A DNA stretch of 64,000 nucleotides from Nitrosopumilaceae archaeon (GCA_965203465.1 CBDBCR010000002.1:99876-163875), one strand, 5' to 3'. Shown: positions 1 to 30,808, numbered from the stretch's first letter. Numbers and translations: made by a program. The notes: generated by a model not told the origin, from the sequence alone.

Positions 1-885
1 GTGCAGTACTTTTTCACCCCCTACCCGCTCATCGAATCGGAGGTGGGCAGGCACAACACCGCCGTGCTAAAGATATACGAAAACGAGGGGCCGCAAAACC
101 TGTCGCACGTCTCGCTGGCCTTCGGCCTGCGCTCCGGGCAGGTCATATCGGAGAGCCTCGCGGTCATAAACTACGACATTTCGCACGACGGCTCCGGGAC
201 GGCCTCCGTCGTAGATCCGGAGGGCGCCATAGACCTCGAGACGCTCAGCGCCGAGCACGAGACCGTCGAGTGCTCGCCCGGCTCGGAGCTGCTGTGCGTG
301 CGGGTGTCCATAGGCCACATGTTCAGGGCCCCGCTCGAGTTCGACATCGTGGGTACCGACGTGTGGGATTCGCAGCGCAACGCGTGGCAGAACTACTTCA
401 ACCACGGCATACGGGTGTCGGGCGAGCCGCTCGACCCGCAGCCCGGAATGGAGGCCAACGGCGGGCAGCTGGTGCTCTACCCGATATCGCCCGGCTCGGC
501 AAACACGGACGTCATGGCAGACTCTGCGGGGCGCCTGTACAAGCTCTCGCCGGACGGCCTGTACCGGGAGCTTGCCAACCAGTCGCGCCTGTACCACATC
601 ATAGACGAATCGATGTACCTGACCGACGGGATGCCGATGCAGGGGTACGACCGCTCCGATCCGCGGTTCAGGGAGCACCTAGAGGCGCAGATACTGGCGG
701 CCCAGCAGGTGATGGACGCGCTCGTGCCGTCGCAATACGAGTACCCGCCGCAGGCCCCGTCCGAGGCGCCAGACCAGGCCGCCGCCGATGCGCGCCTGCG
801 CGCCGCCGTGGCGGCCGAGCAGCAGAGGGCGCTTTTGCTCTTCGAGGAGCTGTTCGGGTACCAGGGAATCAACGATCAAAACTAG
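1..885 (+). CDS. 3' end of a giant secreted surface-protein paralog (conserved C-terminal domain); truncated by the window edge
   Basis: Shares FFTxYP..N.AVLKIYENxG, LAFGLRSG, FRAPLEFDIVGTxVWD..RNAWQNYFNHGI and GYDR.DPRF motifs with the C-termini of the three complete paralogs downstream. Confidence 0.9.
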   Translation: MQYFFTPYPLIESEVGRHNTAVLKIYENEGPQNLSHVSLAFGLRSGQVISESLAVINYDISHDGSGTASVVDPEGAIDLETLSAEHETVECSPGSELLCVRVSIGHMFRAPLEFDIVGTDVWDSQRNAWQNYFNHGIRVSGEPLDPQPGMEANGGQLVLYPISPGSANTDVMADSAGRLYKLSPDGLYRELANQSRLYHIIDESMYLTDGMPMQGYDRSDPRFREHLEAQILAAQQVMDALVPSQYEYPPQAPSEAPDQAAADARLRAAVAAEQQRALLLFEELFGYQGINDQN

Positions 886-1143
886 GGCGCGCGGCTCGAT
901 CGCGGCAAAGTCCGCGGCGGCGCCGCGCATGCGGCCGCCCGACGCGTCGGCGGGCGCTTGGCAGAAAACCTGTCTCCAACTACGCGTTTTACACGCGCGT
1001 CGGGATTTTTGAATCGCGTGCATGCCGCGTCTGCGGCCGTTCGTCCGGCCGGATGCGGCGCCGCGCCCGCCTTCGCAAGTGCAGTAAACCAAACAAAACG
1101 CCCGTCAAAGCGGCCCGCCCGCGTCAAAAAAGGCGGCTAGGCA

Positions 1144-1461
1144 CTACTGCTGGGGCGCGGCCCCTCCGGACAGCAGCGAGAGCACGGGCATGGCGTCCCA
1201 CCCGTACATGGTGTACTCTAGCTTGTCCGAGCAGGCCTCGTCGTACTTTTTGAAAAAGTCGTCCGCCTCGTCCTTGGCCGCCTCGAAGACCGCCATGCCG
1301 GTGGCTCCGTCGTCGAACGATCCGGACCACATGATCCTGCCCTTCGACTGCCATTCGTCGACGAGTTCCCTGACGCGCGGTGCGACCGCCTCCAACTCCT
1401 CCCGCGTGGTGCCGTCCTTGATCACAGAGATCAGCACCCACGGCTTCTGTTCCTGGCTCAT
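1144..1461 (-). CDS. Small dimeric alpha-beta barrel protein (YCII/muconolactone-isomerase-like), hypothetical
   Basis: ATG at 1461 with an AT-rich TATA-like element about 25 bp upstream; W..GRIMWSGSFDDGATGMAVFEA pattern. Confidence 0.65.
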   Translation of the reverse strand: MSQEQKPWVLISVIKDGTTREELEAVAPRVRELVDEWQSKGRIMWSGSFDDGATGMAVFEAAKDEADDFFKKYDEACSDKLEYTMYGWDAMPVLSLLSGGAAPQQ

Positions 1462-1536
1462 GGCGGGCGGCGTGCCCGCGTAGATAATAAAGCATGGGCG
1501 GAATGCACGCGCCTGTTCCAAGCCCGGATAACGGGC

Positions 1537-1977
1537 CTACGCGATCCGGGCGCTGCCGAAGAGCACGCCGAACGCCTTGCACCATATGAGGACCTCGTCG
1601 TACTTTTCCAGGTCCGTCCCGTCGGGTATGGCGTAGTTTTGGTTGCCAGAATTCCCCTTTAGGGTGCCGAGGCTCACGTAGTCCGACGCGCTCTGGTCGG
1701 TGGCCAGGTACACGTACAGGTCGGGGCCGTTGGTGGACCTAAAGTCTTCCAGGCGGAGCACGCGGGATCCGTCCGCCTCCAGGACAGAGGCGGTCCCCTG
1801 CGCGTCGTGGATGCCGTCGCCCACGCCCACGAACGTGCCGCTGTACGCGGTGGCGGGGGCGCTCCCCATCTGCGGCGCGGCCTCGTCCACCTCGGTCTCC
1901 GTAAAGTACGGGCTGAGCGCGTACGCGGCCACCGCCACGGCCACCACCGCGGCCGCCACGGCCGCCGTCTTTATCAC
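1537..1977 (-). CDS. DM13 (electron transfer) domain membrane-anchored protein
   Basis: N-terminal hydrophobic anchor; GxF..G.HDAQG, LRLEDF.STNGPDLYVYL, LGTLKGNSGNQNY, VLIWCKAFGVLFG motifs. Confidence 0.9.
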   Translation of the reverse strand: MIKTAAVAAAVVAVAVAAYALSPYFTETEVDEAAPQMGSAPATAYSGTFVGVGDGIHDAQGTASVLEADGSRVLRLEDFRSTNGPDLYVYLATDQSASDYVSLGTLKGNSGNQNYAIPDGTDLEKYDEVLIWCKAFGVLFGSARIA

Positions 1978-2148
1978 GCCGAACCTTGCAGGCGGGAGGA
2001 TTTAACTGATGTTCCGAATCGCGGCAGACGTGCGGACGGTTCCCGACCGCGGGCGCGCCCGGATCGGGGCGCAGGGGCGGACGGCGCCGGGCGCCGCGGG
2101 TTTGCGTGCCTGGATCGAGACCAGATTCGCCGGCCCGCCGGAGATATC

Positions 2149-2156
2149 TTAATAAA
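2149..2156 (+). promoter_or_regulatory. Archaeal TATA box for surface-protein paralog 1
   Basis: TTAATAAA in a GC-rich context, 22-29 bp upstream of ATG 2178 (leaderless spacing). Confidence 0.65.
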
Positions 2157-2177
2157 CTCGACCGGCTAGCGTCAAGC

Positions 2178-5100
2178 ATGCGCGGCGCGCTCTATGCTGT
2201 GGCGGCGATCTCGGCCTTGGCGGCAGCGGCCCTCGCGCTGCCGGGGGCCGAGGCGCACGAAGGCACCATCACCGTCTCGTCGGCGGCGATCGTGGGCCCG
2301 CACAGCATAGACGTCGTGTTCACCGACAGGATAGGGTACGTCCGCGACGGCACCGACGCCCAGCAAAACGCGCTCTACAGCAACGATCCGAGCGCGCACG
2401 CGCCGGCCATCCACAACCAGATGAAGGCTCTGTACAACAGGGCCGTCGGCGGAGACAGCTCGGCGTGCCCTGAATTGAAGACGATGGGCGCGAGGTACTC
2501 GCAGCTCTTTTACAGCAACGTCGTGCTCTCGCCTGGCGGCGCCAAGCAGATATACCTCGTAGAGCCGGTCAACATAACCACCGACCGCATACACCTCAAC
2601 CCGTGCGAGAACATCCCGAGGGGCGCGACGGCCACGCTGCACATAGCAGACGCCTCGTACGGGACACACCCAAACTCGGTGTACAACAGGCAGTTCAACT
2701 ATACGGAAAATCCGGGCGACTACTTCAGCTTTGGCTGGATCGGCACGCACGGCCACGACATCAACGCGGCGACGATCCACGTGATAGAAGGCCGCCCGCC
2801 GGTGGTGCTAGACAACCCGCTGGTCAACGTGAACACCGGGAGGGTGTTCTTCCACTTTGACGGCCCCGGCGCCAACGGATCCCTCACCGACCCGTCAAAG
2901 ATAACGATCGGCGGCGTCAACATGGCCGGCGCATACCACACCACCACGACGGGGGCAGTCTCGCTCACGCTGCACGGCGGACAGAGGGAGGCGCTCGCCG
3001 AGGTGCAGGATACGAAACTGACAAAGGGCGGCGCCCCGGTGCCCGGCAGCGTGGTGCTGGCAGCCGGCGCGTTCGCCCGCGCGAGCGGCCACGCCACCGA
3101 GGCCGTCACGCTCACGCCGCGGGTCATAAAGGACACCTCGCCGCCGGAGCTGTCGTTCCTCTTTTCGGAGTTCGACTTGGGCCACGGCCTCATCAAACTG
3201 AGGTTCGACGAGCCCGTCTCGACCTCGGCGGACTTGGGCAAGACGCGTATGTTCAACTCCGGCGCGTACATGACGCTGGCGGGCGCCTCGATACAGGAGA
3301 GCGCGCCGTACTCGGAGCGCATCACGATACAGCTCACCCCGTCGCAAAAGGCGACGATCATGGATCCGGGCTCGTTCCCGCCGCGCATACAGTACGGGTT
3401 CCGGGACCAGGCCAGCTTTCCCGACTCGCACGGGTTCTCCAACAGCCTGCGGAACATCAACATGTCGGGCGGCGCGTTCAGCGACGCGGCCGGAATCGCC
3501 GCCCGCGTCAACCACTACTTTGGAACGATCGCCAGCGTCCACCTCGACCACGGCTTCGAGGACAGGGTGGCGCCGCGCGTGCTAGCGCAGTCGCTGTACC
3601 TTGGCAACGACGGCGAGCTGAGGATAACGCTGGACGAGTACGTCAGGGCCCGCTCGGCCGACCTGACCGGCGTGAGCCTGTCCGGCTCGGGGCAGTCCGT
3701 GAGCCTATCGGCGGCCAGCTCGCTAAAGTCCAACGGCGAGGAACTCCGCATATCGCTCACCGAGGAGCAGAGGCAGTCGGCGATAGGCATGGGCGCGCGC
3801 GTGGACTTGGGCGTGCGGGCCGGCGCGCTCAACGATCTGGCCGGCAACCCGATCGCGCAGCTCTCCGGCGCGCAGCTCTCGCTGGTACGGGACGGGCAGG
3901 GCCCGTCGTTCGTGTCCGCTTCGCTGGACGACGAGACCGGCGTGCTGACCGTCACGTTCGACGAAAGGATAGACGTGACGCCCGCGTCCAGGGTGGATCA
4001 GTCCGGTATCGTCATCTGCGCCTCGGGGCGTTCGGACGCCGCCCGGCCCGCGGACGGCCCGCACGCAGACCCGACAGTGAACAGGCTCGGCATCTGCGCC
4101 TCGGGGCATTCGGACGCAGTCCGGCTCTCGGGGCAGACGGTCCTCGGCACCGCCGCCGACGCGGCGACCGTGCGGCTCACGCTCACCGAGGCGCAGAGGT
4201 CGGCCGTCTCCGCGTACAATTCGGGCTCGCTGGTGCTGGAGATGGACGCCGGGGCGGTGCGCGACACGTCGGGCAACCCGTCCCCGCAGCTCTCCGAGCA
4301 CCTCAACGCGTCGGCCGACAAGACGGCCCCCTCCGCGCAGTCGGCCTCGATAGACCTCGGCACGGGCGAGCTCTCGGTGACGTTCGACGAGACAGTCGAC
4401 GCCACGCCGGCGTACAGGGTGGACCTTTCGAGGGTGAAACTGCACGAGGCGGGTAGCGCTGCGATGCTGCCGCTCTCCGGCGCGCAGGTCTCCGAGGCCG
4501 ACAGCCCGGTTGTGCGCGTGACACTTACGGAAAGCCAGAGACAGCAGGCCGTCTCGTACGCCTCGGGGCTGGCCGTCACGCTCGAGGCCGGCGCCGTGCA
4601 CGACGCGGCGCGCAACATGGCGGCGAGAACCGCCGGCCTGTCCGTGTCCGTCTCGGCGCAGGACGAGACGGCGCCGTCGCTGTCCGCCGCCTCGCTCGAC
4701 GGCGGCACCGGGGTGCTGACGCTGCTCTTCGACGAGACGGCCGACGCGTCCGCGGCCGACACGTCGAAGATGTGGCTAAAGGACAGGGGCTCGGCAGACG
4801 CGGCGCGCCTATCCCTCTCGTCGGCCTCGTCGGTCTCTGCGCACGACGCAGAATCGATCGAAGTCACGCTCAGCGGCGCCCAGCGCCAGGCGGCGCTGGC
4901 GTTCGCGGACCTGCTGCTGGACTTGGACGCGTCCGCGGTGGCAGACACGTCGGGCAACGGGATCGAGGCCGCGCGGGACGCCGAGGTCGGAGACAGGCTG
5001 GACGCGGTGGCCCCCTCGCTGGTCTCTGCCTCGCTCTCGGGCCCCAAGGAGGTACGGGTGTTCTTTAGCGAGGATCTGCTGGATTCGTCGGTGCAGCAGT

Positions 5101-7661
5101 CCGACTTTGAGGTCAGCGCGCACACGGTAAGCTCTGTCTCGGAGAGCGCCGGCGCGGTCACTATCGGGCTGGCCGAACCCGTATCGCCCGACTCGGGCGA
5201 GACGGTGCGCGTGACCACGTCGGGCCCGGTCTCGGATCTGGCCGGCAACGAGCTGGCCGCCGGCGCGTACCACGACGTGCTCAACAACCTCGACTTTGCC
5301 GAGATCAGGGAGTTTACAGTCACGTCGAGCAACGAAAACAACGAGTACGCAAAGAGCGGCGACACGGTGACCCTAAAGTTCGCGGCAAAGGCGGCCATAG
5401 ACATCGACGGCAGCACCGTGACGGTCAACTCGCAGAGCTTGGATCTCACCCGGGTGGCCGCCGACGAGTTCACCGCGACGTACGCGGTGGCCGGCGGGGA
5501 CGGGCCGCTGGAGATAGAGGCGCAGATAAAGACGCCCGGGGACAACCCCACGGTGGCCGTGTTCGACGAGTCGGACCTGTGGTCGGTCGACTCCGAGGGA
5601 CAGGCGGGGCCCTCGCCCAACGTGACGCTGGACAACACGGCACCGCGATTCCTGTCCGGCTCGCTGGCCGGGTTCGCGTCCATATACGTCCACTATACCG
5701 AGGAGGTCGTGACCGAAAAATTCGACTATTCGGACATACAGATAAGCGGCGGCGGGACACAGCACGAGCCCTCCTCGGTGTCCGGCTCGGGCGAGTCCTC
5801 GCACATACTGGTCATGTGGCAGGCAAACTACGACGAGAGGGTGATAGGGCGCGAGATAGGCTTCACGGTGGGCCCGCGCGTCACGGATCTGGCGGGCAAC
5901 GACATAGCCAACCCCGCCAGGTACACCGTCCCTGCCGTCACCGACGCGGACGCGCTGAGCACCATACACCTGACCAGCGGGCCGTCGGGCCAGGCCCAGC
6001 TGTCCATGCCGCACGACACGCTGATCAGGAACGTGCACGCGGGGGCCGGCACCGTCCCCACGCTCAACGTCGAAAACTTCCAGAGGCCGGGCGTCTCGCA
6101 CCTTCCCGGAAACCCGTCCGATCACATCGCCTTCCCGCCCGGCGATCCGCTCGTGGTGCACACGCAGACCAGCTCGGTGACGTTCCCGCCCGACGTCCAC
6201 GTGGCTGGCTTCGACGAAGACTTGGGCCACACCATAAGGGCGCAGGTCTCGGAGCGCGAGCCCGACGCCGACTTTGTCGCGGCCCACCCGCACATAGACA
6301 CGGACAGCGCGCACATACTCGAATTCGGCCACCCCGACGTGGATCTGACTTTCAGCCACCCCGTAAAGGTGGACTTTCAGGCCGGCATCGGGCGCGCCGA
6401 CGCGGTCTTTTCGATAGACTCGGCGGGCAGCACGCTGCTGATAGCGGACTGCGGCAACGAGGTGTACGACGCGGGCGCCTCGCAGTCCGACCCGCGGGAG
6501 CGCGACGAGGCCGAGAGGCGCGCGGCCGAGCAGTACCTGCGCAGCGACCCGGCCGAGCTAAAGCCGGCGACGGTCGACGGCGGCGCGTGCGTGGAGCGGG
6601 AGCGCAGCGTGATATGGACGCTGCACTTTTCGTCGTTCGGCTCGGCCTCGCCTGTCCGGACCAGCTCCGAGTGCGACGACTGCACCGCGCCCACGCTCGG
6701 CCTCGGCGACGACGGGGCGCGGATAGTCTCGGGAGGGTTCTCGTACAACGGGCACGCCGCCGACGTGGGCTCTTTCTTTACGGACTATCCGCAGATAACC
6801 GCGCAGGTGGGAGTGGAAAACACCGCGGTGCTAAAGGTGTACGACGAGGGGGGGACCGACCAGGTGAGGCACGCGGCCATCGCGTTCGGCCTGCGCTCGG
6901 GCCAGTCCATCTCGGAGAGCAGGGCCGAGATAGCTTGGGACAGGGACCACGCCGGGACCGAGACCGTCACGGTGACCGATCCGCACAACGCCCTCGAGGG
7001 CTCGGCCGTGTCGGTGAGCGCTTCGGAGGCGCAGTGCAGGCCCGGCTCGACCGACCAGTGCCTCTCGGTCTCCATAACGCACTCTTTCCGGGCCCCGCTG
7101 GACTTTGACATGGTGGGCACCAACGTCTGGGACGCGGACCGCAACGGGCGCCAAAACTACTTCAACCACGGCATACACATAGAGGGCGAATCGCTCAACG
7201 AGATTCCGGGGATGCTGGTGGACGGCCTGAGGCTGTACCCCATCAGGGCAGGCTCTGACCACGTGACGGTCATGACAGACGGGGACGGCCAACTGTACCG
7301 GCTGGCGCCGGACGGGACGTACAAGCCGCTGACCAACCAGTCTGCCCTTCACATGAGCGCCGACGAGCTGTGGTGGGTGACGGCCAACGTGGACGACGAT
7401 CCGATGGGAGGGTACGACCGCTACGATCCGCGCTTTGCCGGCGCGCTGGCCCTCGAAGAGCTGGCGGCCCTCGAGGTGCTCGGGGAACTGACGGGCCACG
7501 CGCCGCTGTCGAACCCGGACTTTGGCGCGCCGGCGCCCCTGGTGTACCACGAGCAGACCTATTCGGACCGCTCGTCCGACGAGGCGCTGGGCGCCGCCAT
7601 TCTGGCCGAGCGGGAGCGCGCGGCGCTGCTGTACGAGGCGCTGTTCGGGGACGGGTGGTAG
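2178..7661 (+). CDS. Giant secreted surface protein, paralog 1 (signal peptide, variable His-tipped domain, Ig-like repeats, HFS motif, conserved C-terminal domain)
   Basis: Long ORF; signal MRGALYAVAAISALAAAALALPGAEA|H; recurring LD.GTG.L.V.FDE...GAV.D..GN repeats; CDDCTAPTLG domain. Confidence 0.9.
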   Translation: MRGALYAVAAISALAAAALALPGAEAHEGTITVSSAAIVGPHSIDVVFTDRIGYVRDGTDAQQNALYSNDPSAHAPAIHNQMKALYNRAVGGDSSACPELKTMGARYSQLFYSNVVLSPGGAKQIYLVEPVNITTDRIHLNPCENIPRGATATLHIADASYGTHPNSVYNRQFNYTENPGDYFSFGWIGTHGHDINAATIHVIEGRPPVVLDNPLVNVNTGRVFFHFDGPGANGSLTDPSKITIGGVNMAGAYHTTTTGAVSLTLHGGQREALAEVQDTKLTKGGAPVPGSVVLAAGAFARASGHATEAVTLTPRVIKDTSPPELSFLFSEFDLGHGLIKLRFDEPVSTSADLGKTRMFNSGAYMTLAGASIQESAPYSERITIQLTPSQKATIMDPGSFPPRIQYGFRDQASFPDSHGFSNSLRNINMSGGAFSDAAGIAARVNHYFGTIASVHLDHGFEDRVAPRVLAQSLYLGNDGELRITLDEYVRARSADLTGVSLSGSGQSVSLSAASSLKSNGEELRISLTEEQRQSAIGMGARVDLGVRAGALNDLAGNPIAQLSGAQLSLVRDGQGPSFVSASLDDETGVLTVTFDERIDVTPASRVDQSGIVICASGRSDAARPADGPHADPTVNRLGICASGHSDAVRLSGQTVLGTAADAATVRLTLTEAQRSAVSAYNSGSLVLEMDAGAVRDTSGNPSPQLSEHLNASADKTAPSAQSASIDLGTGELSVTFDETVDATPAYRVDLSRVKLHEAGSAAMLPLSGAQVSEADSPVVRVTLTESQRQQAVSYASGLAVTLEAGAVHDAARNMAARTAGLSVSVSAQDETAPSLSAASLDGGTGVLTLLFDETADASAADTSKMWLKDRGSADAARLSLSSASSVSAHDAESIEVTLSGAQRQAALAFADLLLDLDASAVADTSGNGIEAARDAEVGDRLDAVAPSLVSASLSGPKEVRVFFSEDLLDSSVQQSDFEVSAHTVSSVSESAGAVTIGLAEPVSPDSGETVRVTTSGPVSDLAGNELAAGAYHDVLNNLDFAEIREFTVTSSNENNEYAKSGDTVTLKFAAKAAIDIDGSTVTVNSQSLDLTRVAADEFTATYAVAGGDGPLEIEAQIKTPGDNPTVAVFDESDLWSVDSEGQAGPSPNVTLDNTAPRFLSGSLAGFASIYVHYTEEVVTEKFDYSDIQISGGGTQHEPSSVSGSGESSHILVMWQANYDERVIGREIGFTVGPRVTDLAGNDIANPARYTVPAVTDADALSTIHLTSGPSGQAQLSMPHDTLIRNVHAGAGTVPTLNVENFQRPGVSHLPGNPSDHIAFPPGDPLVVHTQTSSVTFPPDVHVAGFDEDLGHTIRAQVSEREPDADFVAAHPHIDTDSAHILEFGHPDVDLTFSHPVKVDFQAGIGRADAVFSIDSAGSTLLIADCGNEVYDAGASQSDPRERDEAERRAAEQYLRSDPAELKPATVDGGACVERERSVIWTLHFSSFGSASPVRTSSECDDCTAPTLGLGDDGARIVSGGFSYNGHAADVGSFFTDYPQITAQVGVENTAVLKVYDEGGTDQVRHAAIAFGLRSGQSISESRAEIAWDRDHAGTETVTVTDPHNALEGSAVSVSASEAQCRPGSTDQCLSVSITHSFRAPLDFDMVGTNVWDADRNGRQNYFNHGIHIEGESLNEIPGMLVDGLRLYPIRAGSDHVTVMTDGDGQLYRLAPDGTYKPLTNQSALHMSADELWWVTANVDDDPMGGYDRYDPRFAGALALEELAALEVLGELTGHAPLSNPDFGAPAPLVYHEQTYSDRSSDEALGAAILAERERAALLYEALFGDGW
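4013..4117 (+). repeat. 27-bp intragenic direct repeat (one mismatch), 78 bp apart
   Basis: CATCTGCGCCTCGGGGCGTTCGGACGC (4013-4039) and CATCTGCGCCTCGGGGCATTCGGACGC (4091-4117); encodes ICASG(R/H)SDA twice. Confidence 0.85.
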
Positions 7662-7701
7662 ATTCCATGGCTGAGCGGGCTTACGTACCAGGCGAGCGGC
7701 G

Positions 7702-10700: not shown

Positions 10701-13089
10701 CGTCTCGGACACCGAGGACAACGTGCTCGACGGGGCCGTAGCACAAATCCACGCGTACGCCCCCAACGATCTGGTCTTTGCCGACGCGGCAGAGTTCACC
10801 GTGTCTTCGAGCAACCCCAACCCCATGTACGCGCGCGCCGGCGAGACGGTCACGCTGACCTTCAAAGCGGACGTGGACATACTGCCCGCAAACGAGACGG
10901 GCGTGCTGTTCAACCTGAATGACGCCTCGTCGATATCGAGCGTCACGGCGCGCGGGTTCACCGCCACGTACGTCGTGCAGCAGTCCGACCGCGACGGCCC
11001 GCTGGACCTGGTGGTCGCGGTGGAGACGACCGACGCGATATCGACCTTTACGGCGGCCGACATTACGTCGGGCGGCAACGTGACGGTGGACACCACGCCG
11101 CCCCGGTACATGTCCGCGACGCTGGCCGGGATGCAGTCCATACACGTCCACTATTCGGAGCCGGTGCAGACCTCGGCGACCGACTATACGGGCATCGGCA
11201 TAGGGTGCCCCGACTGCACGCCGCAGCCCGCCTCTTCGGCGTCCAACCCCGGCCCGTCCTCGCACGTGCTGGTGTCGTGGGCCACGCAAGTCCCCGGCAC
11301 GGAGCGCTCCAACGTGGAATTCACGATCAGCTCGTCGGTGACGGATCTTGCAGGCAACGGCCTGTCCAACCACGGCGTCAAGACCATGCCGCCGCCCGAG
11401 AACCTCGAGGCGGTCAGCAGGCTGCAGCTGGACACCACGGACAGCGGCGTCTCGGGCGTGGCGCTGCCGCACGACACGCTGGTGCGCACGGTCGTGGCCA
11501 CGCCGGGGACGGTCCCGGTCATCGACGTGTCGGGGTTCAAGGAGCCGGGCTCGGTGCACGGCGGCGTGGCCGGCGCCGGCGGCAACAGGGTAGAGTTCCC
11601 GCCGGGCAGGGAGCTCATGGTGGAGACGGACATGGCGACCGTGACGTTCCAGCCGATGGTGCAGGCCGGCGGCTTCCCCAACCGGGACGGCTCTGACGCG
11701 GGCAGCACCATAACAGTCGACGTCTCGCAAAAGGATCCAGACTCGGAGTTCACGGAACTACACCCGCACGTGGATCCGGAGTTTTCGCTGATACTGGAGT
11801 TCGGCAGGCCCGACGTGGATCTTGCCTTCAGCGCGCCGGTCCAAGTCGCGCTAAAGAGCGACATACTGCCCAGCTCCACCGTGTTCACGATAAACGCGGC
11901 AGGCTCCACGCGCGAGGTGCTAGAGTGCGGCTCGGACGTGCGGGACTCTGCCACCGCGCTGGACTTCATAGTCTCGTCGGTCGCGCCGCTCGGATCCGCG
12001 ACGGTCGACGGCGGCGCATGCGTCGACAAGGACTTCAACGTCATCTGGACTATGCACTTTTCGGCGTTCGGCGTCTCGCTGCCGTCCCCGTCCTCGTCGG
12101 CAAGATCCAGCTGCGACGACTGCACGCCGCCCACCCTGGGCCGCGACGAGGGCGGCGATCTGGTAGTCGCCGGCGGGTTCACCTACAACGGCCGCGAGGC
12201 CAACGTGGAGACGTTCTTCACGGCGTACCCGCGCATAGAGACGCAGGTGGGCTCGCCCAACGTGGCCGTCGTAAAGATATACGAGAACGGCGGGCCCGAC
12301 AATATACGGCACGCCTCGCTTGCCTTCGGGCTGCGCTCCGGCGAGGTGATATCGGAGAGCACCGCTGCCATCGAGTGGAACCGTGACCACGCCGGCGCCG
12401 AGTCGGTCACGCTCTTCGATCCGCACAACGCCATCGACGGCGCCAGCTTGGGCGTGGACGCCTCGGAGACAGAGTGCGCGGCCGGCTCTTCTCTTCAGTG
12501 CCTGCGGCTGGAGTTCCGCCACACGTTCCGGGCCCCGCTAGAGTACGACATCGTGGGCACCAACGTCTGGGACGCCGACCGCAACGCATGGCAGAACTAC
12601 TTCAACCACGGCATACACATCGAGGGCGAATCGCTCAACGAGATACCGGGGATGCTGGTCGACGGCATGAGGCTGTACCCCATCAGGGCCGGCTCGGACC
12701 ACGTGACGGTCATGTCAGACGGGGACGGCCAGCTGTACAGGCTGGCCCCGGACGGCCAGTACCGGCCGCTGACGAACTCGTCGGCGCTGTACAGGAACGC
12801 CGACGAGTCCATATGGCTGCAGGCAAACGGGATGGAGCCGATGGGCGGCTACGACCGGCACGATCCGCGCTTTGCAGGCGAGCTGGCCTCGGAGGAGCTG
12901 GCGGCCCTCGAGGTGCTCGCCTCTCTTACCCGCGACGCCCCGCTGGAAAACCCAGGGTTCGGCGCGCCCGCGCCCCTGGTGTACCACGAGCAGACCTATT
13001 CGGACCGCTCGTCCGACGAGGCGCTGGGCGAGGCGCTGCTGGCCGAGCAGGAGCGCGCGGCGCTGCTCTACGAGGTTCTGTTCGGGTAG
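7702..13089 (+). CDS. Giant secreted surface protein, paralog 2
   Basis: 1795-aa ORF; hydrophobic N-terminus ending LPEAEA|H; same architecture as paralogs 1 and 3. Confidence 0.9.
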   Translation: MLVKGRIAQVVLVSLVPALLVGYGALDGGWQAVLPEAEAHAGTIHVTRAALTGPNTIVITYSGVVGAPEQTRPTVQCFYGGCIRTGTETVITDAGRYSDIVINPGGSVGITSRDRHGYGGNEHRITFGGSGAAPDATGSLSVASGGPWSNSYHRHTRAAATVTVQDGQAPGLVPSSVSLDLNNTGVFSFRANEDLLKSATDPSKITIAGVSLSSATVLDLGGERGVYVTITEDQRSRLAALQDGGLTADFAGAAFADALGNRSAPASGVQISVTKDTTPPALLLGDSSLDLGTGALRLAFSEYVDVSEADMSAVRLQDSSGGRGLSLAGSAVLEEDDGYGVSVQLTDLQRAQIANPDAFPPGASPGAVPGAQLPAVGDLPEAYTLTYLKAPSAAFSDLAGIPLSRAPDGAKLPTTDDSAPPSVLGSPAPSLALDTGILRFELDEYVRARAIDLENVAIKDRFDGSVSLENAELRSDGKAVMLTLPDPDREAAINMQTDLLLSVPAGAVEDVSGNGIAGSETGIEVARDRTAPSLVRASLAGDKLALVFSETVDATPSGQVVLSKMSLRAPQTAEAGAVRLSSGQDVATVETSADGPRVDITLTASQRSALAAGQSSTLLLSLEADAVRDLSGNPVQANSELPVGASLDLAGPAALSVTLDTGTGTMSVTFDEIIDATPASKVDASKFSIRDSSGSADAVRTALANAKVSGFDRATLELKLTEAQRQAALSYGGAPVLDVAAGAVRDLADNPSSASAGLPVAVSGADTFVPQLLSAYLNRGTGNLEMLFGETVDVSEIDLAKLRIQEIAVVVEAPENTGTAVCALDLNNIYRWLTGPNAGQTCTPPTAPPPVPQAFVQLKTDTTSASVLTTSDGASVAVALTEEQLGWVEAFERAAQLDIEAGAVKDTSANPIQARSDVPLSVQADTVPPALVSAAITGPNSVRVQFSEDLLNSSVDASDFAVRGHAIAGVEETKGTVDIELSTRIDNTSGQTVRVSVTGSVSDTEDNVLDGAVAQIHAYAPNDLVFADAAEFTVSSSNPNPMYARAGETVTLTFKADVDILPANETGVLFNLNDASSISSVTARGFTATYVVQQSDRDGPLDLVVAVETTDAISTFTAADITSGGNVTVDTTPPRYMSATLAGMQSIHVHYSEPVQTSATDYTGIGIGCPDCTPQPASSASNPGPSSHVLVSWATQVPGTERSNVEFTISSSVTDLAGNGLSNHGVKTMPPPENLEAVSRLQLDTTDSGVSGVALPHDTLVRTVVATPGTVPVIDVSGFKEPGSVHGGVAGAGGNRVEFPPGRELMVETDMATVTFQPMVQAGGFPNRDGSDAGSTITVDVSQKDPDSEFTELHPHVDPEFSLILEFGRPDVDLAFSAPVQVALKSDILPSSTVFTINAAGSTREVLECGSDVRDSATALDFIVSSVAPLGSATVDGGACVDKDFNVIWTMHFSAFGVSLPSPSSSARSSCDDCTPPTLGRDEGGDLVVAGGFTYNGREANVETFFTAYPRIETQVGSPNVAVVKIYENGGPDNIRHASLAFGLRSGEVISESTAAIEWNRDHAGAESVTLFDPHNAIDGASLGVDASETECAAGSSLQCLRLEFRHTFRAPLEYDIVGTNVWDADRNAWQNYFNHGIHIEGESLNEIPGMLVDGMRLYPIRAGSDHVTVMSDGDGQLYRLAPDGQYRPLTNSSALYRNADESIWLQANGMEPMGGYDRHDPRFAGELASEELAALEVLASLTRDAPLENPGFGAPAPLVYHEQTYSDRSSDEALGEALLAEQERAALLYEVLFG

Positions 13090-13336
13090 GGGCCGGGCGC
13101 TGACGCGATCCGCCTGCCGGGCCGGTCTTGGGACGCGAACCGATCCGCGCGCGGCGCTTTTCCGCGCCCCGGCGGTCTGGACTGGCAGGTTGCGCCCGCC
13201 GGACGCGATCTGACGGCTTTTTTGGCCGACTGGACGGATGTCTTGCCGAACGCGGATGTACCGCAAAAGCGTGCGCTCGCGGGCGGGCGGCCGCGCCCGA
13301 GGCGCGCGCGGGCGTACGGTTTGGGCGACACATGTC

Positions 13337-13367
13337 TTATATACCAAAAGCTGCGGGGGGGGGGGGG
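13337..13367 (+). promoter_or_regulatory. TATA box (TTATATA, 13337-13343) followed by a G13 homopolymer (13355-13367) running into the probable GTG start
   Basis: Sequence cTTATATAccaaaagctgc-G13-tg; the last G is the first base of the in-frame GTG at 13367. Confidence 0.7.
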
Positions 13368-16300
13368 TGGCAGAACGGTGCGAATCGGCGAGGCGCGGGC
13401 TCTTCCGCGCGGACAAGCTGCTCGCGCTGGCGGCCCCGGCGGTGCTCGCGCTGGCAGTATGCGGCGCCCTCGACATGTCCGGCGCGTGGCCTGATCTGCT
13501 GCCCGAGGCCGAGGCTCACGCGGGCAAGATCCACATCACCAACGCCGTGCTGACCAACCACAACACGATACTGGTAACGTATTCGGGCTCCATCGCGCCG
13601 CCCTCTTCCAGGCAGGTCCCGCAGTCGCAGTGCTACGGCGCGTTCGGCTGCTCGTTCACCGGCTACAAGACGGTCTGGAACGTGGCCTCGCGGTATTCGG
13701 ACGTGTCGATGAACCCGGGCGGGGCCATGGGCATCGCGAGAGTCTCGTACAGCGCGTACAACGCGCACTTTATACACCTGTCCGGCAGCGTGCCGTCTCC
13801 GGACGCGACCGGCTCGCTCAGCGTGGCCTCGTCGGGCTCCGTGAGTTGGACCAACTCGCAGCACAGCCACACGCGCGACGCGGCGACGGTCACCGTCCAC
13901 GACGGGCAGGGCCCGGGCCTGGCGTCTTCGGGCGCGTCCCTGGATCTGAACGCGGGCATCTTTTCGTTCACGGCCAACGAGGATCTGCAAAAGTCGGCCA
14001 CCGACCCGTCAAAAATAACCATAGCCGGCGTGAACCTCTCTAGCGCCACCGCGCTGGACTTGGGCGGCGAGCGTAGCGTATCGATCGTCATCACCGAGGA
14101 TCAGAGGTCGCGCCTGGCCGCGCTGCAGGACGGCGCCGGCCTGACGGCCGACTTTGCCGGGGCGGCGCTTGCAGACGCGGCGGGCAACCGGTCGGGCCCC
14201 GCTTCGGGCGTGCAGATATCCCTGACAAAAGACACGACGCCCCCGGCGCTGTCGCTGGCCTCTTCCAGCCTGGACTTGGGCACCGGCACGATGAAGCTCC
14301 TGTTCACAGAGTACGTTGACGTGTCCGAGGCGGACATGTCGGCGGTGCGGCTACAAAACCCCTCGGGAGGCGCGGGGTTCAGCCTGGCCGGCAGCGCCGT
14401 CCTGGAGGAGGACGACGGCTACGGCGTCTCGGTGCAGCTGACCGACCTGCAGCGGGCGCAGATAATCAACCCGGCCGCGTTCCCGGCCGGGGCGCCCCCC
14501 GAGACGGTTCCAGATCTGATGCTGCCCGTCATCAGGGAGCCCCCGCCGGGCGCCGCGCTGACGCACCTGAAAGTGGACCCCGCGGCGTTCCGCGATCTGG
14601 CCGGCATCGCGCTCTCGCGGGCCGTCGAAGGGCAGATTCCGGCGACCCCCGACGCGACGGCGCCTTCGGTACTGGGCAGCCCGGCGCCCTCGCTGGCCCT
14701 GGACACGGGGGTGCTGCGCTTCGAGTTCGACGAGTACGTCAACGCCCGCGCGGTCGATTTCGACGACATGGCGATAAAGGACAGGTTCGACGGGAGCGTC
14801 TCGCTGGAGAACGCCGGCGTCCGCTCGGACGGCAAGACCGTGATACTGACGCTGCCCGACCGGGACAGGGAGGCTGCCATCAACATGCAGACCGACCTGC
14901 TCTTGCACGCAAAAACCGGCGCGGTCAAGGACGTCTCGGGCAACGGCATCGCCGAATCGGATACGGGCATCGAGGTGGCGCGGGACAGGACCGCCCCGTC
15001 GCTGGTCCGCGCATCGCTGGATCCGAGCAGCGGCAATCTGGCGCTGGTCTTCAGCGAGACAGTCGACGCCACCCCGTCGGGCCAGGTCGTCCTGTCGAAG
15101 ATGTCGCTGCGCGCCCCGCAGACGGCCGAGGCCGACGCGGTGCGCCTTTCGTCGGGGCAGGACAGGGCGACGGTGACCACCGCCGCCGACGGCCCGCGGG
15201 TCGACATCACGCTGACGGCCAGCCAGAGATCGGCGCTGGCAGCCGGCCAGAGCGCCACGCTGCTGCTCTCGCTCGAAGCCGACGCCGTCCGGGATCTTTC
15301 GAACAACCCTGTCCAGGCCAACAGCGAGCTGCCGGTCGGCACGTCGCTGGATCTGGGAGGGCCGACGGCGCTTTCAGTCTCCCTCGAGACGGGCACCGGC
15401 ACCATGACGGTCACGTTCGACGAGACCGTCGATGCCACGCCAGCATCGAAGGTCGACACGTCAAAGTTCTCCATCCGCGACTCGTCGGGCGGCGCCGACG
15501 CCGTGCGCACCGCGCTGACGTCGGCCAAGGTCTCCGAGTTTGACCGCCTCTCGCTGGAGCTAAAGCTCACCGAGGCGCAGAGGCAGGCGGCCCTGTCGTA
15601 CGGCGGCGCGCCGTTCCTGGACATCGCCGCCGGCGCCGTCCGCGACTCGGCGGACAACCCGTCGTCGGCTACCAGCGACATGACCGTCAACGTAACCGGA
15701 ACGGACACGCTGGTGCCCGGGTTGCTCTCGGCGTACCTGAACTGGGGGACCGGCAACCTCGAGATGCTGTTCGGCGAGACGGTGGACGTATCCGAGATAG
15801 ACCTTGCAAAGCTGAGGATACAAGAGATCGCGGTGGTCGTAGAGGCGCCCGAAAACACGGGCCCGGGCGTGTGCACGCCGGATCTGCAAAACATCTACCG
15901 CTGGGCAGGCGGCCCCAACGACGGCCAGCTGTGCACCCCGCCGACCGCGCCGCCGCCCGTGCCGCAGGCGTTCGTGCAGCTAAAGACGGACACGACTTCG
16001 GCCTCGGTGCTGACCACCGCGGACGGCGCCTCGGCCACCGTGGCCCTGACCGAGGAGCAGCTGGGGTGGGTCGAGGCGTTCGAGCGCGCAGCGCAGCTGG
16101 ACATCGAAGCGGGCGCCGTAAAGGACACGTCGGCCAACCCGATCCAGGCCCGCTCGGACATCCCGCTCTCCGTCCAAGCTGACACCGTCCCGCCGGCGCT
16201 GGTCTCGGCGGCGATCACCGGCCCCGATTCGGTACGCGTGCAGTTCAGCGAGGATCTGCTGAATTCGTCGGTGGACGCCTCCGACTTTGCGGTGCGCGGC

Positions 16301-18805
16301 CACGCGATCGCCGGCGTCGAGGAGACAAAGGGCACGGTGGACATCGAGCTGTCCACGCGCATCGACAACACGTCGGGCCAGACCGTGCGCGTCTCGGTGA
16401 CGGGCAGCGTCTCGGACACCGAGGACAACGTGCTCGACGGGGCCGTCGCACAAATTTACATAGATGCCCCCAACGACCTTGTCTTTGCCGACGTGGCCGA
16501 GTTCACCGTGTCTTCGAGCAACCCCAACCCCGTGTACGCGCGCGCCGGCGATACCGTAACGCTGACCTTCAGGGCCGACGTGGACATCCTGCCCGCAAAC
16601 GAGACGGGCGTGCTGTTCAACCTAAACGACGCCGCGTCGATCTCGAACGTCACGGCGCGCGGGTTCACGGCCACTTACGTCGTGCAGCAGTCCGACCGCG
16701 ACGGCCCGCTCGACCTGGTGGTCGCGGTGGAGACAACCGACGCGATATCTGCCTTTACGGCGGCCGACATTACGTCGGGCGGCAACGTGACGGTGGACAC
16801 CACGCCGCCCCGGTACCTGTCGGCCACGCTAGCCGGGATGCAGTCCATACACGTCCACTATTCGGAGCCGGTAAAGACGTCCGCCTCCGACTATACGGGC
16901 ATCGGCATCGGGTGCCCCGACTGCACGCCGCAGCCCGCCTCGTCCGCGTCCAACCCGGGACCGTCCTCACACGTGCTGGTGTCGTGGGCCACGGAGGTGC
17001 CGGACACAGAGCGCTCCGACGTGGACTTTACGATCAGCTCGTCGGTGACGGATCTTGCGGGCAACGCACTGTCCAACTCGGGCGCAAAGACCATGCCGCC
17101 GCCCGAGAACCTCGAGGCGGTCAGCCGGCTGCAGCTGGACACGACGGACAGCGGCGTCTCGGGCGTGGCGCTGCCGCACGACACGCTGGTGCGCACGGTC
17201 GTGGCCACGCCGGGGACGGTCCCGGTCATAGACGTGTCGGGGTTCAAGGAGCCGGGCTCGGTGCACGGCGGCGTGGCCGGCGCCGGAGGCAACCGCGTCC
17301 AATTCCCGTCTGGCAGCGAGCTGACCGTCGATACGGACATGGCCACCGTGACGTTCCAGCCGATGGTGCAGGCGGGCGGCTTCCCCAACCAGGACGGCGC
17401 GGACGCGGGCAGCACCATAACCGTCGACGTCTCGCAAAAGGATCCAGACTCGGAGTTCACGGAACTGCACCCGCACGTGGATCCGGAGTTTTCGCTGATA
17501 CTGGAGTTCGGCAGGCCCGACGTTGACCTTGCCTTCAGCGCGCCGGTGCAGGTCGCGCTAAAGAGCGACATACTGCCCAGCTCCACCGTGTTCACGATAA
17601 ACGCGGCAGGCTCCACGCGCGAGGTGCTAGAGTGCGGCGACGGCGTCGAGGATTCGGCGACCGCGCTGGACTTCATAACATCGTCTGTCGCTCCGTTGGG
17701 GTCTGCCACGGTAGACGGCGGCGCATGCGTCGACAAGGACTTCAACGTAATCTGGACTATGCACTTTTCGGCGTTCGGCGTGTCTCTGCCCAACCCGTCC
17801 TCGTCGGGAGGCTCCACGTGCGACGACTGCACGCCGCCCACCTTGGGCAGGAACGAGGCCGGCGATCTGGTAGTCGCCGGCGGGTTCACCTACAACGGCC
17901 GCGAGGTCAACGTGGAGACGTTCTTCACGGCGTACCCGCGCATAGAGACGCAGGTGGGCTCGCCCAACGTGGCCGTCGTAAAGATATACGAAAACGGCGG
18001 GCCCGACAACGTGCGGCACGCCTCGCTTGCCTTCGGGCTGCGCTCCGGCGAGGTGATATCGGAGAGCACCGCTGCCATCGAGTGGAACCGTGACCACGCC
18101 GGCGCCGAGTCGGTCACGCTCTTCGATCCGCACAACGCCATCGACGGCGCCAGCTTGGGCGTGGACGCCTCGGAGACAGAGTGCGCGGCCGGCTCTTCTC
18201 TTCAGTGCCTGCGGCTGGAGTTCCGCCACACGTTCCGGGCCCCGCTAGAGTACGACATCGTGGGCACCAACGTCTGGGACGCCGACCGCAACGCATGGCA
18301 GAACTACTTCAACCACGGCATACACATCGAGGGCGAATCGCTCAACGAGATACCGGGGATGCTGGTCGACGGCATGAGGCTGTACCCCATCAGGGCCGGC
18401 TCGGACCACGTGACGGTCATGTCAGACGGGGACGGCCAGCTGTACAGGCTGGCCCCGGACGGCCAGTACCGGCCGCTGACGAACTCGTCGGCCCTGTACA
18501 GGACCGCCGACGAGTCCATATGGCTGCAGGCAAACGGGATGGAGCCGATGGGCGGCTACGACCGGCACGATCCGCGCTTTGCCGGCGAGCTGGCCTCGGA
18601 GGAGCTGGCGGCCCTTGAGGTGCTCGCCTCTCTTACCCGCGACGCCCCGCTGGAAAACCCAGGGTTCGGCGCGCCCGCGCCCCTGGTGTACCACGAGCAG
18701 ACCTATTCGGACCGCTCGTCCGACGAGGCGCTGGGCGAGGCGCTGCTGGCCGAGCAGGAGCGCGCGGCGCTGCTCTACGAGGCCATGTTCGCAAACAGGC
18801 GCTAG
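13367..18805 (+). CDS. Giant secreted surface protein, paralog 3
   Basis: ORF 13238-18805, probable start GTG 13367 given TATA spacing; signal ends LPEAEA|H; long stretches near-identical to paralog 2 at an offset of 5707 bp. Confidence 0.88.
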   Translation: MAERCESARRGLFRADKLLALAAPAVLALAVCGALDMSGAWPDLLPEAEAHAGKIHITNAVLTNHNTILVTYSGSIAPPSSRQVPQSQCYGAFGCSFTGYKTVWNVASRYSDVSMNPGGAMGIARVSYSAYNAHFIHLSGSVPSPDATGSLSVASSGSVSWTNSQHSHTRDAATVTVHDGQGPGLASSGASLDLNAGIFSFTANEDLQKSATDPSKITIAGVNLSSATALDLGGERSVSIVITEDQRSRLAALQDGAGLTADFAGAALADAAGNRSGPASGVQISLTKDTTPPALSLASSSLDLGTGTMKLLFTEYVDVSEADMSAVRLQNPSGGAGFSLAGSAVLEEDDGYGVSVQLTDLQRAQIINPAAFPAGAPPETVPDLMLPVIREPPPGAALTHLKVDPAAFRDLAGIALSRAVEGQIPATPDATAPSVLGSPAPSLALDTGVLRFEFDEYVNARAVDFDDMAIKDRFDGSVSLENAGVRSDGKTVILTLPDRDREAAINMQTDLLLHAKTGAVKDVSGNGIAESDTGIEVARDRTAPSLVRASLDPSSGNLALVFSETVDATPSGQVVLSKMSLRAPQTAEADAVRLSSGQDRATVTTAADGPRVDITLTASQRSALAAGQSATLLLSLEADAVRDLSNNPVQANSELPVGTSLDLGGPTALSVSLETGTGTMTVTFDETVDATPASKVDTSKFSIRDSSGGADAVRTALTSAKVSEFDRLSLELKLTEAQRQAALSYGGAPFLDIAAGAVRDSADNPSSATSDMTVNVTGTDTLVPGLLSAYLNWGTGNLEMLFGETVDVSEIDLAKLRIQEIAVVVEAPENTGPGVCTPDLQNIYRWAGGPNDGQLCTPPTAPPPVPQAFVQLKTDTTSASVLTTADGASATVALTEEQLGWVEAFERAAQLDIEAGAVKDTSANPIQARSDIPLSVQADTVPPALVSAAITGPDSVRVQFSEDLLNSSVDASDFAVRGHAIAGVEETKGTVDIELSTRIDNTSGQTVRVSVTGSVSDTEDNVLDGAVAQIYIDAPNDLVFADVAEFTVSSSNPNPVYARAGDTVTLTFRADVDILPANETGVLFNLNDAASISNVTARGFTATYVVQQSDRDGPLDLVVAVETTDAISAFTAADITSGGNVTVDTTPPRYLSATLAGMQSIHVHYSEPVKTSASDYTGIGIGCPDCTPQPASSASNPGPSSHVLVSWATEVPDTERSDVDFTISSSVTDLAGNALSNSGAKTMPPPENLEAVSRLQLDTTDSGVSGVALPHDTLVRTVVATPGTVPVIDVSGFKEPGSVHGGVAGAGGNRVQFPSGSELTVDTDMATVTFQPMVQAGGFPNQDGADAGSTITVDVSQKDPDSEFTELHPHVDPEFSLILEFGRPDVDLAFSAPVQVALKSDILPSSTVFTINAAGSTREVLECGDGVEDSATALDFITSSVAPLGSATVDGGACVDKDFNVIWTMHFSAFGVSLPNPSSSGGSTCDDCTPPTLGRNEAGDLVVAGGFTYNGREVNVETFFTAYPRIETQVGSPNVAVVKIYENGGPDNVRHASLAFGLRSGEVISESTAAIEWNRDHAGAESVTLFDPHNAIDGASLGVDASETECAAGSSLQCLRLEFRHTFRAPLEYDIVGTNVWDADRNAWQNYFNHGIHIEGESLNEIPGMLVDGMRLYPIRAGSDHVTVMSDGDGQLYRLAPDGQYRPLTNSSALYRTADESIWLQANGMEPMGGYDRHDPRFAGELASEELAALEVLASLTRDAPLENPGFGAPAPLVYHEQTYSDRSSDEALGEALLAEQERAALLYEAMFANRR

Positions 18806-29648: not shown

Positions 29649-30756
29649 ACTCGTGGGCCCTGATCCGCTCCAGCTCCGGCTCCAGATCCCGCACGCTCTG
29701 CCCGCCGCGCGCCACGATGTTGGCGTGGCCCATCTTGCGCCCGGGCCTTGACGAGGCCTTGCGGTACATCTTTGTGTGCACGCTGCCGCCGCGCGGCTCC
29801 GAGACCTCGTAGGGGCCCTCGAAGCTGCCGAGCACGTTGTGCATTATCGTGGGCCTCTCTATGCGGGCCGGCCCGAGCGGCATGCCGAGCACGGCGCGCA
29901 GGTGCTGCTCGAACTGCGAGACGGCGCACGACTGGAGCGTGTGGTGGCCCGAGTTGTGCACGCGCGGCGCTATCTCGTTGACGAGCAGCCCGTCGCCGCG
30001 CACGAACATCTCTATGCCGAAGACGCCCTCGCCTTCCAGGGCGCCCATGACGCGGCCGGCGAGCTCTTCGGCCTTTCGCGAAACCTGCGGGCCCGCGCGC
30101 GCCGGCGCGAACGTGGTCCGCAGTATGCCGGCCTCGTGGACGTTCTCGACGGCCGGGTAGGCCGCGCGCGCGCCGCCGGCCCCCCTCGCCGCCACGACCG
30201 AGACTTCCATGGAGAATGGTATCTTTTTTTCGAGCATGAGCGGGCCCGCGAGGGCGCCGAACGCCTCTTCGACGACGCCGTCCCAGGAGACCTCAAAGTT
30301 GCCCCTGCCGTCGTAGCCCCCCCGCCTCGACTTTGCTATGACCGGGTAGCCCAGGGAGCGCGCGGCCTCTCTGGCCTCTTTTGGCGAGGGCGCGTCGGCG
30401 AACGGGGCGACCGGTATCCCGTTCTCCTCCAGCATGCGCTTTTGGAGCAGCTTGTCCTGTATCGTGCGGAGCGTCGAGGGCGGGGGGCTGATGCGGGCCT
30501 CGCCCTGCAGGCCGGCGAGCACGGAGCTGTCCCCAGACTCTATCTCGTAGGTTATGACGTCGGCGCGGCGCGCCAGCTCTTGCAGCGCGGCCCCGTCGGC
30601 AAAGCCGGCCGTTATCTGCCGCGCGCCCGCCTGCGAGGCGGGGCAGTCCGGCGTCGGATCCAGCACCACGACCTCGGACACTTGGGGCATCCTGGAGGCC
30701 GCCTCGGTGAGCATCATGCCGAGCTGGCCCCCTCCGATGATGCCCAGCACGGTCAC
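29626..30756 (-). CDS. purK: 5-(carboxyamino)imidazole ribonucleotide synthase
   Basis: LGIIGGGQLGMM, GYDGRGN, NEIAPRVHNSGH, SQFEQHLRA, RKMGH motifs. Confidence 0.95.
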   Translation of the reverse strand: MTVLGIIGGGQLGMMLTEAASRMPQVSEVVVLDPTPDCPASQAGARQITAGFADGAALQELARRADVITYEIESGDSSVLAGLQGEARISPPPSTLRTIQDKLLQKRMLEENGIPVAPFADAPSPKEAREAARSLGYPVIAKSRRGGYDGRGNFEVSWDGVVEEAFGALAGPLMLEKKIPFSMEVSVVAARGAGGARAAYPAVENVHEAGILRTTFAPARAGPQVSRKAEELAGRVMGALEGEGVFGIEMFVRGDGLLVNEIAPRVHNSGHHTLQSCAVSQFEQHLRAVLGMPLGPARIERPTIMHNVLGSFEGPYEVSEPRGGSVHTKMYRKASSRPGRKMGHANIVARGGQSVRDLEPELERIRAHEFMVPAKS

Positions 30757-30808
30757 GCAGGCGGCCCCCAGAGTTCTCAATTTATCGCTTCGGCCGCCCG
30801 GGGCGCTT

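Follow-up and report, generated by a model that had tools for sequence, protein, structure and literature searches.

How the paralogous genes of one tandem array can be almost identical in some segments and strongly diverged in others is the question raised by a stretch of 64,000 nucleotides (nt) from a Nitrosopumilaceae archaeon (GCA_965203465.1, CBDBCR010000002.1, here contig C2, positions 99876-163875; referred to below as the window), the first 18.8 kb of which encode giant putative surface proteins. An earlier examination of the DNA by itself (the sequence-only reading) reported at least four such paralogues and proposed that recombination homogenises their constant regions while exposed loops diversify, as in a locus of antigenic or adhesin variation, plausibly for interaction with a host or virus. 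The genome, 2.26 Mb in 4 contigs, is that of a high G+C (65%) thaumarchaeon, and high G+C content has been described for several thaumarchaeal symbionts of sponges (in passages of PMC7848895 and PMC6697440). The stretch is present in sponge-metagenome and marine-metagenome runs, and the organism is a sponge-associated ammonia-oxidising archaeon (AOA). How the cell surface is displayed and evolves in archaeal symbionts of animals is poorly understood. In this work we have analysed the array and consider it probable that it reflects concerted evolution of an adhesin-like surface repertoire by gene conversion, and not cassette antigenic variation.

The array comprises five genes, pm1, p0, p1, p2 and p3, all on the plus strand, and window positions 1-18805 (66-70% G+C) correspond to its 3′ part. 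They contain the 3′ end of p0 (1-885, the last 294 codons of a frame of 2694 codons at C2:92676-100760 that starts upstream of the window) and three complete genes: p1 (2178-7661, 1827 amino acids), p2 (7702-13089, 1795 amino acids) and p3 (13367-18805, 1812 amino acids when started at GTG 13367). The remaining member, pm1 (1846 codons), precedes p0 on contig C2 upstream of the window, and the four paralogues noticed earlier are thus extended to five.

Over their whole length p2 and p3 are 88.5% identical in DNA and 86% in protein, and the divergence is not uniform. The two near-identical blocks singled out by the sequence-only reading were recovered at 236 of 241 positions (10500-10740 versus 16207-16447, including an exact run of 167 nt, p2 10528-10694 and p3 16235-16401) and at 907 of 916 positions (12160-13075 versus 17867-18782, including exact runs of 479 nt, 12307-12785 and p3 18014-18492, and of 166 nt, 12910-13075). 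The divergence that it placed at the N-terminal tip and in internal loops was equally found, with amino acid identity of 0.29-0.68 at the tip and 0.49-0.58 (at about 8725-8875) in an internal stretch covering p2 8725-8900 and p3 about 14429-14600.

Silent sites were tested on codons specifying the same residue in both genes, 1509 such degenerate codons being available for p2 and p3, of which 216 differ. The differences are distributed heterogeneously over 31 windows (chi-square 162.5, 30 degrees of freedom, p = 4e-20), and still so within the gap-free 3′ 3.8 kb (p = 1e-7). The longest run free of silent differences extends over 153 codons (12307-12781), a length reached in 0 of 2000 permutations, for which the mean was 38 and the maximum 78. 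Synonymous divergence (dS) calculated according to Nei and Gojobori in 60-codon windows falls from 0.66-0.91 at the tip and 0.87 in the internal stretch (at 8785) through 0.11-0.52 in the middle to 0 at 12379-12738. Since silent differences are not erasable by selection on the protein, this gradient shows recombination, and non-reciprocal homologous recombination (gene conversion) between p2 and p3 is well supported.

The same process is visible between strains. A search over 5.8 billion proteins gave 31 relatives, all from metagenomes, among which strain orthologues were recognized for p1 (P0014, 90-100% identical per 50-residue window), p2 (P0006) and p3 (P0005). Trees of the array proteins and eight relatives, built for segments defined by p2 residues, group p2 with P0006 and p3 with P0005 in segment 201-1000 (support 100/100 and 99/99, respectively) and in segment 1001-1560 (98/96 and 86/86), whereas in the tail, segment 1655-1795, P0006 joins the pair of p1 and P0014 (100/99). 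The body of P0006 thus goes with p2 and its tail with p1/P0014, which indicates that a p1-type tail has been copied onto the p2 gene in a related strain. At the diagnostic columns that distinguish P0006 from P0005, p2 and p3 have the state of their own orthologue in residues 1-1000 (198 and 199 of 222 columns); in residues 1501-1650, within the tract 17867-18782, 8 of 10 columns in p3 show the p2-type state, indicating conversion from p2 to p3. Moreover, the same derived codons (GAG, CTG and CAG) are present in both p2 and p3 at residues 1777, 1779 and 1783, where P0005, P0006, p1, P0014 and the outgroup P0007 have A, I and R; as these codons are lacking in the orthologues, they represent a change that arose after the strains split and is now present in both paralogues. 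The data show at least two conversions after strain divergence, one from p2 to p3 in this genome (about 12300-12790) and one in a related strain, whose p2 orthologue received a tail of the p1 type. The part of the sequence-only reading that ascribed the homogenised constant regions to recombination is hence borne out by dS falling to zero in the blocks, by incongruent segment trees and by shared derived codons.

Two patches of p1 had been described as shared with p2 and p3, and their identity stands: p1 7157-7275 matches p2, and likewise p3, at 112 of 119 positions, and p1 7537-7592 matches both at 56 of 56. The conversion signal within the genome is weak, as the corresponding runs of 20 codons were reached in 64 and 62 of 2000 permutations; dS in the two patches is 0.35 and 0.24 versus 0.5-0.9 in most surrounding windows. 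An exact run of 61 nt common to the three genes (p1 7533-7593, p2 12970-13030, p3 18677-18737) may mark the edge of an older exchange between p1 and p2, with marginal support. The run test was significant for pm1 and p0 (23 codons, 1 of 2000) and gave no significant run for p0-p1, p0-p2, pm1-p1 or pm1-p2.

The array proteins, of about 1,800-2,700 amino acids and acidic (isoelectric point, pI, 4.3-4.6), consist of a signal peptide, a paralogue-specific first immunoglobulin (Ig)-like domain, a stalk of roughly a dozen Ig-like beta-sandwich domains and a C-terminal module. The only Pfam family found, Big_5 (PF13205), scores above its gathering threshold of 23.6 in p1 (34.4 bits), p2 (41.8 bits) and p3 (26.4 bits), and NCBIfam gave nothing above cut-offs in these three proteins. 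The first Ig-like domain, or head, corresponds in p2 to residues 42-170 (7822-8211), the part least similar to p3, whose counterpart lies at about 13520-13900. In an AlphaFold2 (AF2) model of p2 residues 1-333 (predicted local distance difference test score, pLDDT, 83) a disordered signal region is followed by two Ig-like sandwiches, and residues 42-170 match a domain of the surface-layer (S-layer) protein SbsC (Z 11.6, root-mean-square deviation 2.5, 97 residues aligned). The residues that diverge most between p2 and p3, 65-116, include a hairpin with Cys77 and Cys82, which is predicted to be disulfide-stapled. In a further Ig-like domain of p2 and p3 (window 10100-10200 and 15800-15900) a loop with two cysteines is inserted (ENTG..VC..C..TPP); p1 lacks it.

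At the other end of p2, the last 723 residues (10918-13086) form a family-wide C-terminal module, modeled by AF2 as a chain of beta domains (pLDDT 84.2, predicted template modeling score, pTM, 0.55): an Ig domain similar to SbsC (Z 13.3), further beta domains, a sandwich at module residues 400-571 that begins with the motif CDDCTPPT, and a tail of two long helices forming a hairpin. Both SbsC matches, in head and module, fall on SbsC domain residues 258-359. In Foldseek the bacterial S-layer proteins SbsC, Sap, SbsB and EA1 rank highest, at low overall template modeling scores (about 0.14 for SbsC or Sap), and the Big_5 or SbsC-type likeness concerns single domains only, the domain arrangement not being common to SbsC or Sap.

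The last 339 residues of p2 (12070-13086) constitute a widely distributed module, which is also found on many other secreted thaumarchaeal proteins; its final 330 residues or so contain the CDDCTPPT sandwich, in which the motif is invariant, and the helical hairpin. The module was found at 17 places in the genome; 15 copies are full-length, one is partial and one is split into two matches. The open frames of the family, 1,804-9,068 codons long, total 62,024 codons, or about 8% of the genome. The modules can differ considerably, those of p0 and p2 being 43% identical. Two copies, one with a full-length module on the minus strand (C3:602077-604101) and one a fragment of 255 codons on the plus strand (C1:941599-941955), contain a TAG and are probably decaying. 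Two pairs of dispersed members are similar in their 3′ parts and differ in their 5′ parts: C3:185428-193332 and C3:509287-519678 (97.8% over 6,180 nt), and C3:403431-421838 and C3:57998-85204 (90.3% over 8,964 nt); therefore the mosaic of constant tail and variable head is not confined to the tandem array. Among 12 non-redundant members the fraction of silent differences, taken over identical residues, is 0.17-0.36 in the last ~280 module residues (384-659) and 0.31-0.47 upstream, which suggests homogenisation throughout the family.

Beyond this genome, a profile of the module detected 1199 protein clusters (E<=0.001) among 1.84 billion representatives, and many of the matching proteins are 400-700 amino acids long, possess a signal peptide and a Gly-rich linker, and have the module as their extreme C-terminus. 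DUF7948/SBBP propellers, LVIVD and ANF_receptor domains are among the N-terminal parts joined to the module. Of 60 further genomes sampled from the same taxonomic family, 19 contain the module (E<=1e-10), with at most 9 matches in each versus 17 here, and the four representatives of the same genus that were searched gave weak and partial matches only. In two relatives from another genus of the family, G024 and G048, it ends frames of 11,156, 14,652, 16,125 and 25,697 codons. Searches of Pfam and NCBIfam returned no family for the module, and the protein-atlas search with the last 339 residues returned only unnamed clusters at 0.77-0.78, below the meaningful level. Attachment or sorting modules typically show this combination of a constant C-terminus with varied passenger domains, so that this part of the proteins is probably an envelope-attachment module.

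Taken together, the data show that the paralogues trade sequence by gene conversion, mostly in their 3′ portions, so that the C-terminal module evolves in concert and the N-terminal heads remain distinct and stably inherited. The following can be proposed in addition. The module would be the cell-proximal end attached to the envelope or to a shared partner, and the heads would be putative ligand-binding tips in the sponge matrix. Conversion could be self-reinforcing, in that purifying selection on the module would supply the homology needed by recombination; it would keep the family members compatible with a shared partner and occasionally recombine the head of one gene with the tail of another. 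On these grounds it is plausible that the family is an adhesin-like repertoire attached to the envelope through a homogenised anchor module. More specifically, and only as a tentative suggestion that we regard as rather less likely to hold than to fail, the final ~330 residues might be an undescribed envelope-attachment or sorting module of Nitrosopumilaceae, carrying a repertoire of 17 genes with Ig stalks, and conversion might keep the attachment ends interchangeable, allowing distinct host-binding heads to be re-paired with stalks and anchors. Were this true, the family would be an archaeal counterpart of the evolution of adhesin repertoires in bacteria, tied to life in an animal host. The 17 genes are a concrete candidate for the repertoire in contact with the sponge matrix, and the widespread, unannotated module is a candidate for a role in attachment, sorting or assembly.

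Several points weigh against the interpretation as a conversion-homogenised adhesin repertoire. The putative attachment role is deduced only from the position of the module and its spread across passenger domains; neither a transmembrane segment nor a known sorting signal is present in the module, Pfam and NCBIfam gave no match to it, and the likeness between the CDDC sandwich and V-set Ig domains (Z about 8.5) lies in a range counted as common. Codon constraint could also produce the lower silent divergence of the module. The run test places the p1 patches at the margin, and the orthologues P0005, P0006 and P0014 are protein sequences only, which do not necessarily come from one genome. Finally, short-read contigs break inside the p2/p3 repeats, and none of the contig pieces listed runs from the unique 5′ part of a copy into its identical 3′ block. 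As for further strain DNA, none from a close strain was found: the genome contigs searched contained two distant thaumarchaeal loci only, and the metagenome contigs contained 15 loci, 14 of them 35-55% identical to the C-terminal module and one a 47-residue fragment at 72%.

Among the alternatives, the one that survives best, although we judge it unlikely, holds that the array encodes alternative isoforms of an S-layer lattice whose 3′ homogenisation results from constraints at lattice contacts. The best fold matches are indeed bacterial S-layer proteins, and the S-layer protein of Nitrosopumilus maritimus, NmSLP (Nmar_1547, structure 8C8K), of 1,734 residues and ten Ig-like domains and with a 91%-identical paralogue, Nmar_1201 (passages of PMC11153153), resembles the array proteins (about 1,800 amino acids) in its chain of Ig-like domains, its length and its acidic pI. 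Many putative S-layer proteins have also been reported in sponge AOA, six of them detected by proteomics (passages of PMC6790972). However, p2 differs from NmSLP in having no sequence similarity to it: a phmmer search of p2 against all PDB sequences gave one chance-level match at E<=1 (5ujp, 0.83) and none to 8C8K. An orthologue of NmSLP is encoded elsewhere, at C3:734454-739664, which matches 8c8k_A end to end (E = 0, 1688 bits, chain residues 1-1734), and p1-p3 were accordingly rejected as the AOA lattice protein, NmSLP having its orthologue in a different gene. Two other large open reading frames (ORFs) considered as the S-layer orthologue were also discarded, one having no PDB match and the other being a frame that holds leucyl-tRNA synthetase. 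Furthermore, family members reach 9,068 codons and contain unrelated passenger domains, and therefore accessory appendages fit better than lattice subunits.

Programmed antigenic or phase variation, in which one expressed gene is rewritten from silent donors as in pilE/pilS, vlsE or msp2 and the surface changes quickly under pressure from host or virus, is very improbable. The mosaic of variable and constant segments and the real conversion tracts speak for it, and the sequence-only reading had likened the locus to one of antigenic or adhesin variation. The silent donors of cassette systems are truncated or devoid of promoter or start, whereas p1, p2 and p3 are intact: all are full ORFs with start codons, hydrophobic N-termini or signal peptides and a conserved AEAH site, with no silent cassettes among them, and p1 and p3 have TATA-like boxes of their own. 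Cassette systems convert one-way into a single expression site; the signals found here, from p2 to p3 and from a p1-type gene onto the p2 orthologue of a relative, suggest several directions. It is also the constant end, and not the variable one, that is overwritten by conversion. Variable regions of cassette systems change rapidly between close strains, whereas the p2 and p3 heads match those of the strain orthologues P0006 and P0005 at 93-100% identity, and the p3-type head is 77-90% identical to that of a distant relative, P0012, the remainder of which is at about 30-75%. The proposed diversification of exposed loops was likewise not borne out. The ratio of non-synonymous (dN) to synonymous divergence (dN/dS) between p2 and p3 is below 1 in every 60-codon window, with a maximum of 0.95; these windows gave no sign of positive selection on the tips, where divergence is near saturation. 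For the variable parts dS reaches the level of dN, which together with dN/dS below 1 identifies them as old unconverted divergence and not as the product of fast protein change. High tip dS, heads conserved between strains and the match to P0012 thus suggest that the heads are long-established, stable types, probably with a function, and not decoys that change fast.

It is similarly hard to credit that no conversion has taken place and that p2 and p3 are recent duplicates under purifying selection at the 3′ end and relaxed or positive selection at the 5′ end. Amino acid conservation is highest in the C-terminal module throughout the family, as this would predict, but selection on the protein spares silent differences and could not bring dS from about 0.9 to 0 with an exact run of 479 nt, and the strongly supported conflict among segment trees and the derived codons shared by p2 and p3 but missing in the orthologues also speak against it.

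The region is covered by public contigs from runs of four studies, p1 by single contigs of 6.1-6.8 kb. The p1-p2 junction is bridged by a short-read contig (X10, 7564-8417) and the p2-p3 junction by three (X10, 13046-14118; X1, 13046-14010; X2, 12995-13446), the bridging contigs coming from runs of three different studies; contig depth gives no copy number. Many listed contig joints have sides of 20-26 letters that fit repeats or other organisms, and these were not used. At homologous places of p2 and p3, X1 (at 12361) and X2 (at 18068), which belong to different studies, depart with the same 17 loose letters, and this loose end may reflect variation between strains within the block for which p2 and p3 agree here. 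An assembly artefact, that is, blocks arising from repeat collapse or chimeric joining, is suggested by the fragmentation of the public short-read contigs across p2 and p3 but is the least probable of all alternatives, as the genome assembled into 4 contigs although it contains 17 paralogous giant genes, which suggests that repeats were spanned, the identical block is short (0.5-0.9 kb), both gene junctions are bridged, and separately predicted metagenome proteins, possibly from other assemblies, match p1-p3 over the full length with 94-99% identity outside the exchanged tails. Such families break or collapse in short-read metagenome-assembled genomes, which calls for caution.

Concerted evolution by gene conversion, the interpretation preferred here, has its closest mechanistic parallel in the bab genes of Helicobacter pylori (babA/babB/babC), in which intragenomic conversion gives chimeras that differ between strains (passages of PMC4552749). 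Both sets, as far as these passages go, consist of full-length, separate surface paralogues with homologous ends and divergent parts (ligand-binding parts in bab), and bab-like chimeras are represented here by the p1-type tail on the p2 orthologue and by the p2/p3 tract. The Bab proteins are bacterial beta-barrel outer-membrane proteins, whereas the array family consists of archaeal Ig chains of 1,800-9,000 amino acids whose genes are partly in tandem, and the adhesin function of the array is putative. The VARTIG proteins of Thermococcales are likewise large archaeal Ig proteins with mosaics made by recombination, with the difference that they have, according to the abstract of PMC8416519, a hypervariable C-terminal Ig domain and variable downstream genes, whereas the C-terminus of the array proteins is constant and homogenised. 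No downstream module of the VARTIG type was seen after p3 among the ORFs scanned against Pfam, of which the nearest five have no match and the next ones encode thiolase and NTP-transferase domains.

Other thaumarchaeal symbionts of sponges, Ca. Nitrosospongia ianthellae and Cenarchaeum symbiosum, similarly have many large acidic surface proteins. Moeller et al. have described expanded putative S-layer proteins in sponge AOA and proposed for them a role in adhesion or surface recognition in the sponge matrix; the passages seen of this account (PMC6790972) do not mention gene conversion, a shared C-terminal module or a tandem array. A limited literature search found no report on gene conversion among thaumarchaeal surface-protein paralogues. 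The array provides a well-supported case of ongoing conversion between paralogues in a thaumarchaeon, visible at the timescale of strain divergence.

The start of p1 was placed at ATG 2178, which matches the beginning of the orthologue P0014 (the longest ORF begins at GTG 2106), and that of p3 at GTG 13367, where the N-terminus of P0005 aligns (the longest ORF begins at ATG 13238). On the plus strand a TATA-like box, TTAATAAA, at 2149-2156 lies 29 nt before the ATG of p1 in a region of 66% G+C, and another, TTATATA, at 13337-13343 lies 30 nt before the GTG of p3; both are putative promoters. The gap between p1 and p2 is only 40 nt and has no AT-rich box, and p1 and p2 are therefore likely to be co-transcribed. 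T-runs follow the stop codon of p2 at about 13162 and at 13218-13223 and appear terminator-like.

Between p0 and p1 (window 1144-2001) there are two small genes on the minus strand, an ORF of 130 amino acids with no Pfam match and a protein of 154 amino acids with a DM13 'electron transfer' domain (3.3e-22). Farther downstream, the minus strand of window 35990-40609 encodes a Type ISP restriction-modification enzyme of 1539 amino acids with Mrr_cat_2, ResIII/helicase, ISP coupler, N6 methylase and Type_ISP_C domains (the last at 1.4e-78). Its G+C content of 49-58%, versus about 66% around it, suggests that the restriction-modification region is a horizontally acquired defence island. Near this putative island an ORF of 670 amino acids on the plus strand (window 29776-31788) has an AbiEi antitoxin C-terminal domain (1.6e-06) and may be part of an abortive-infection or toxin-antitoxin pair.

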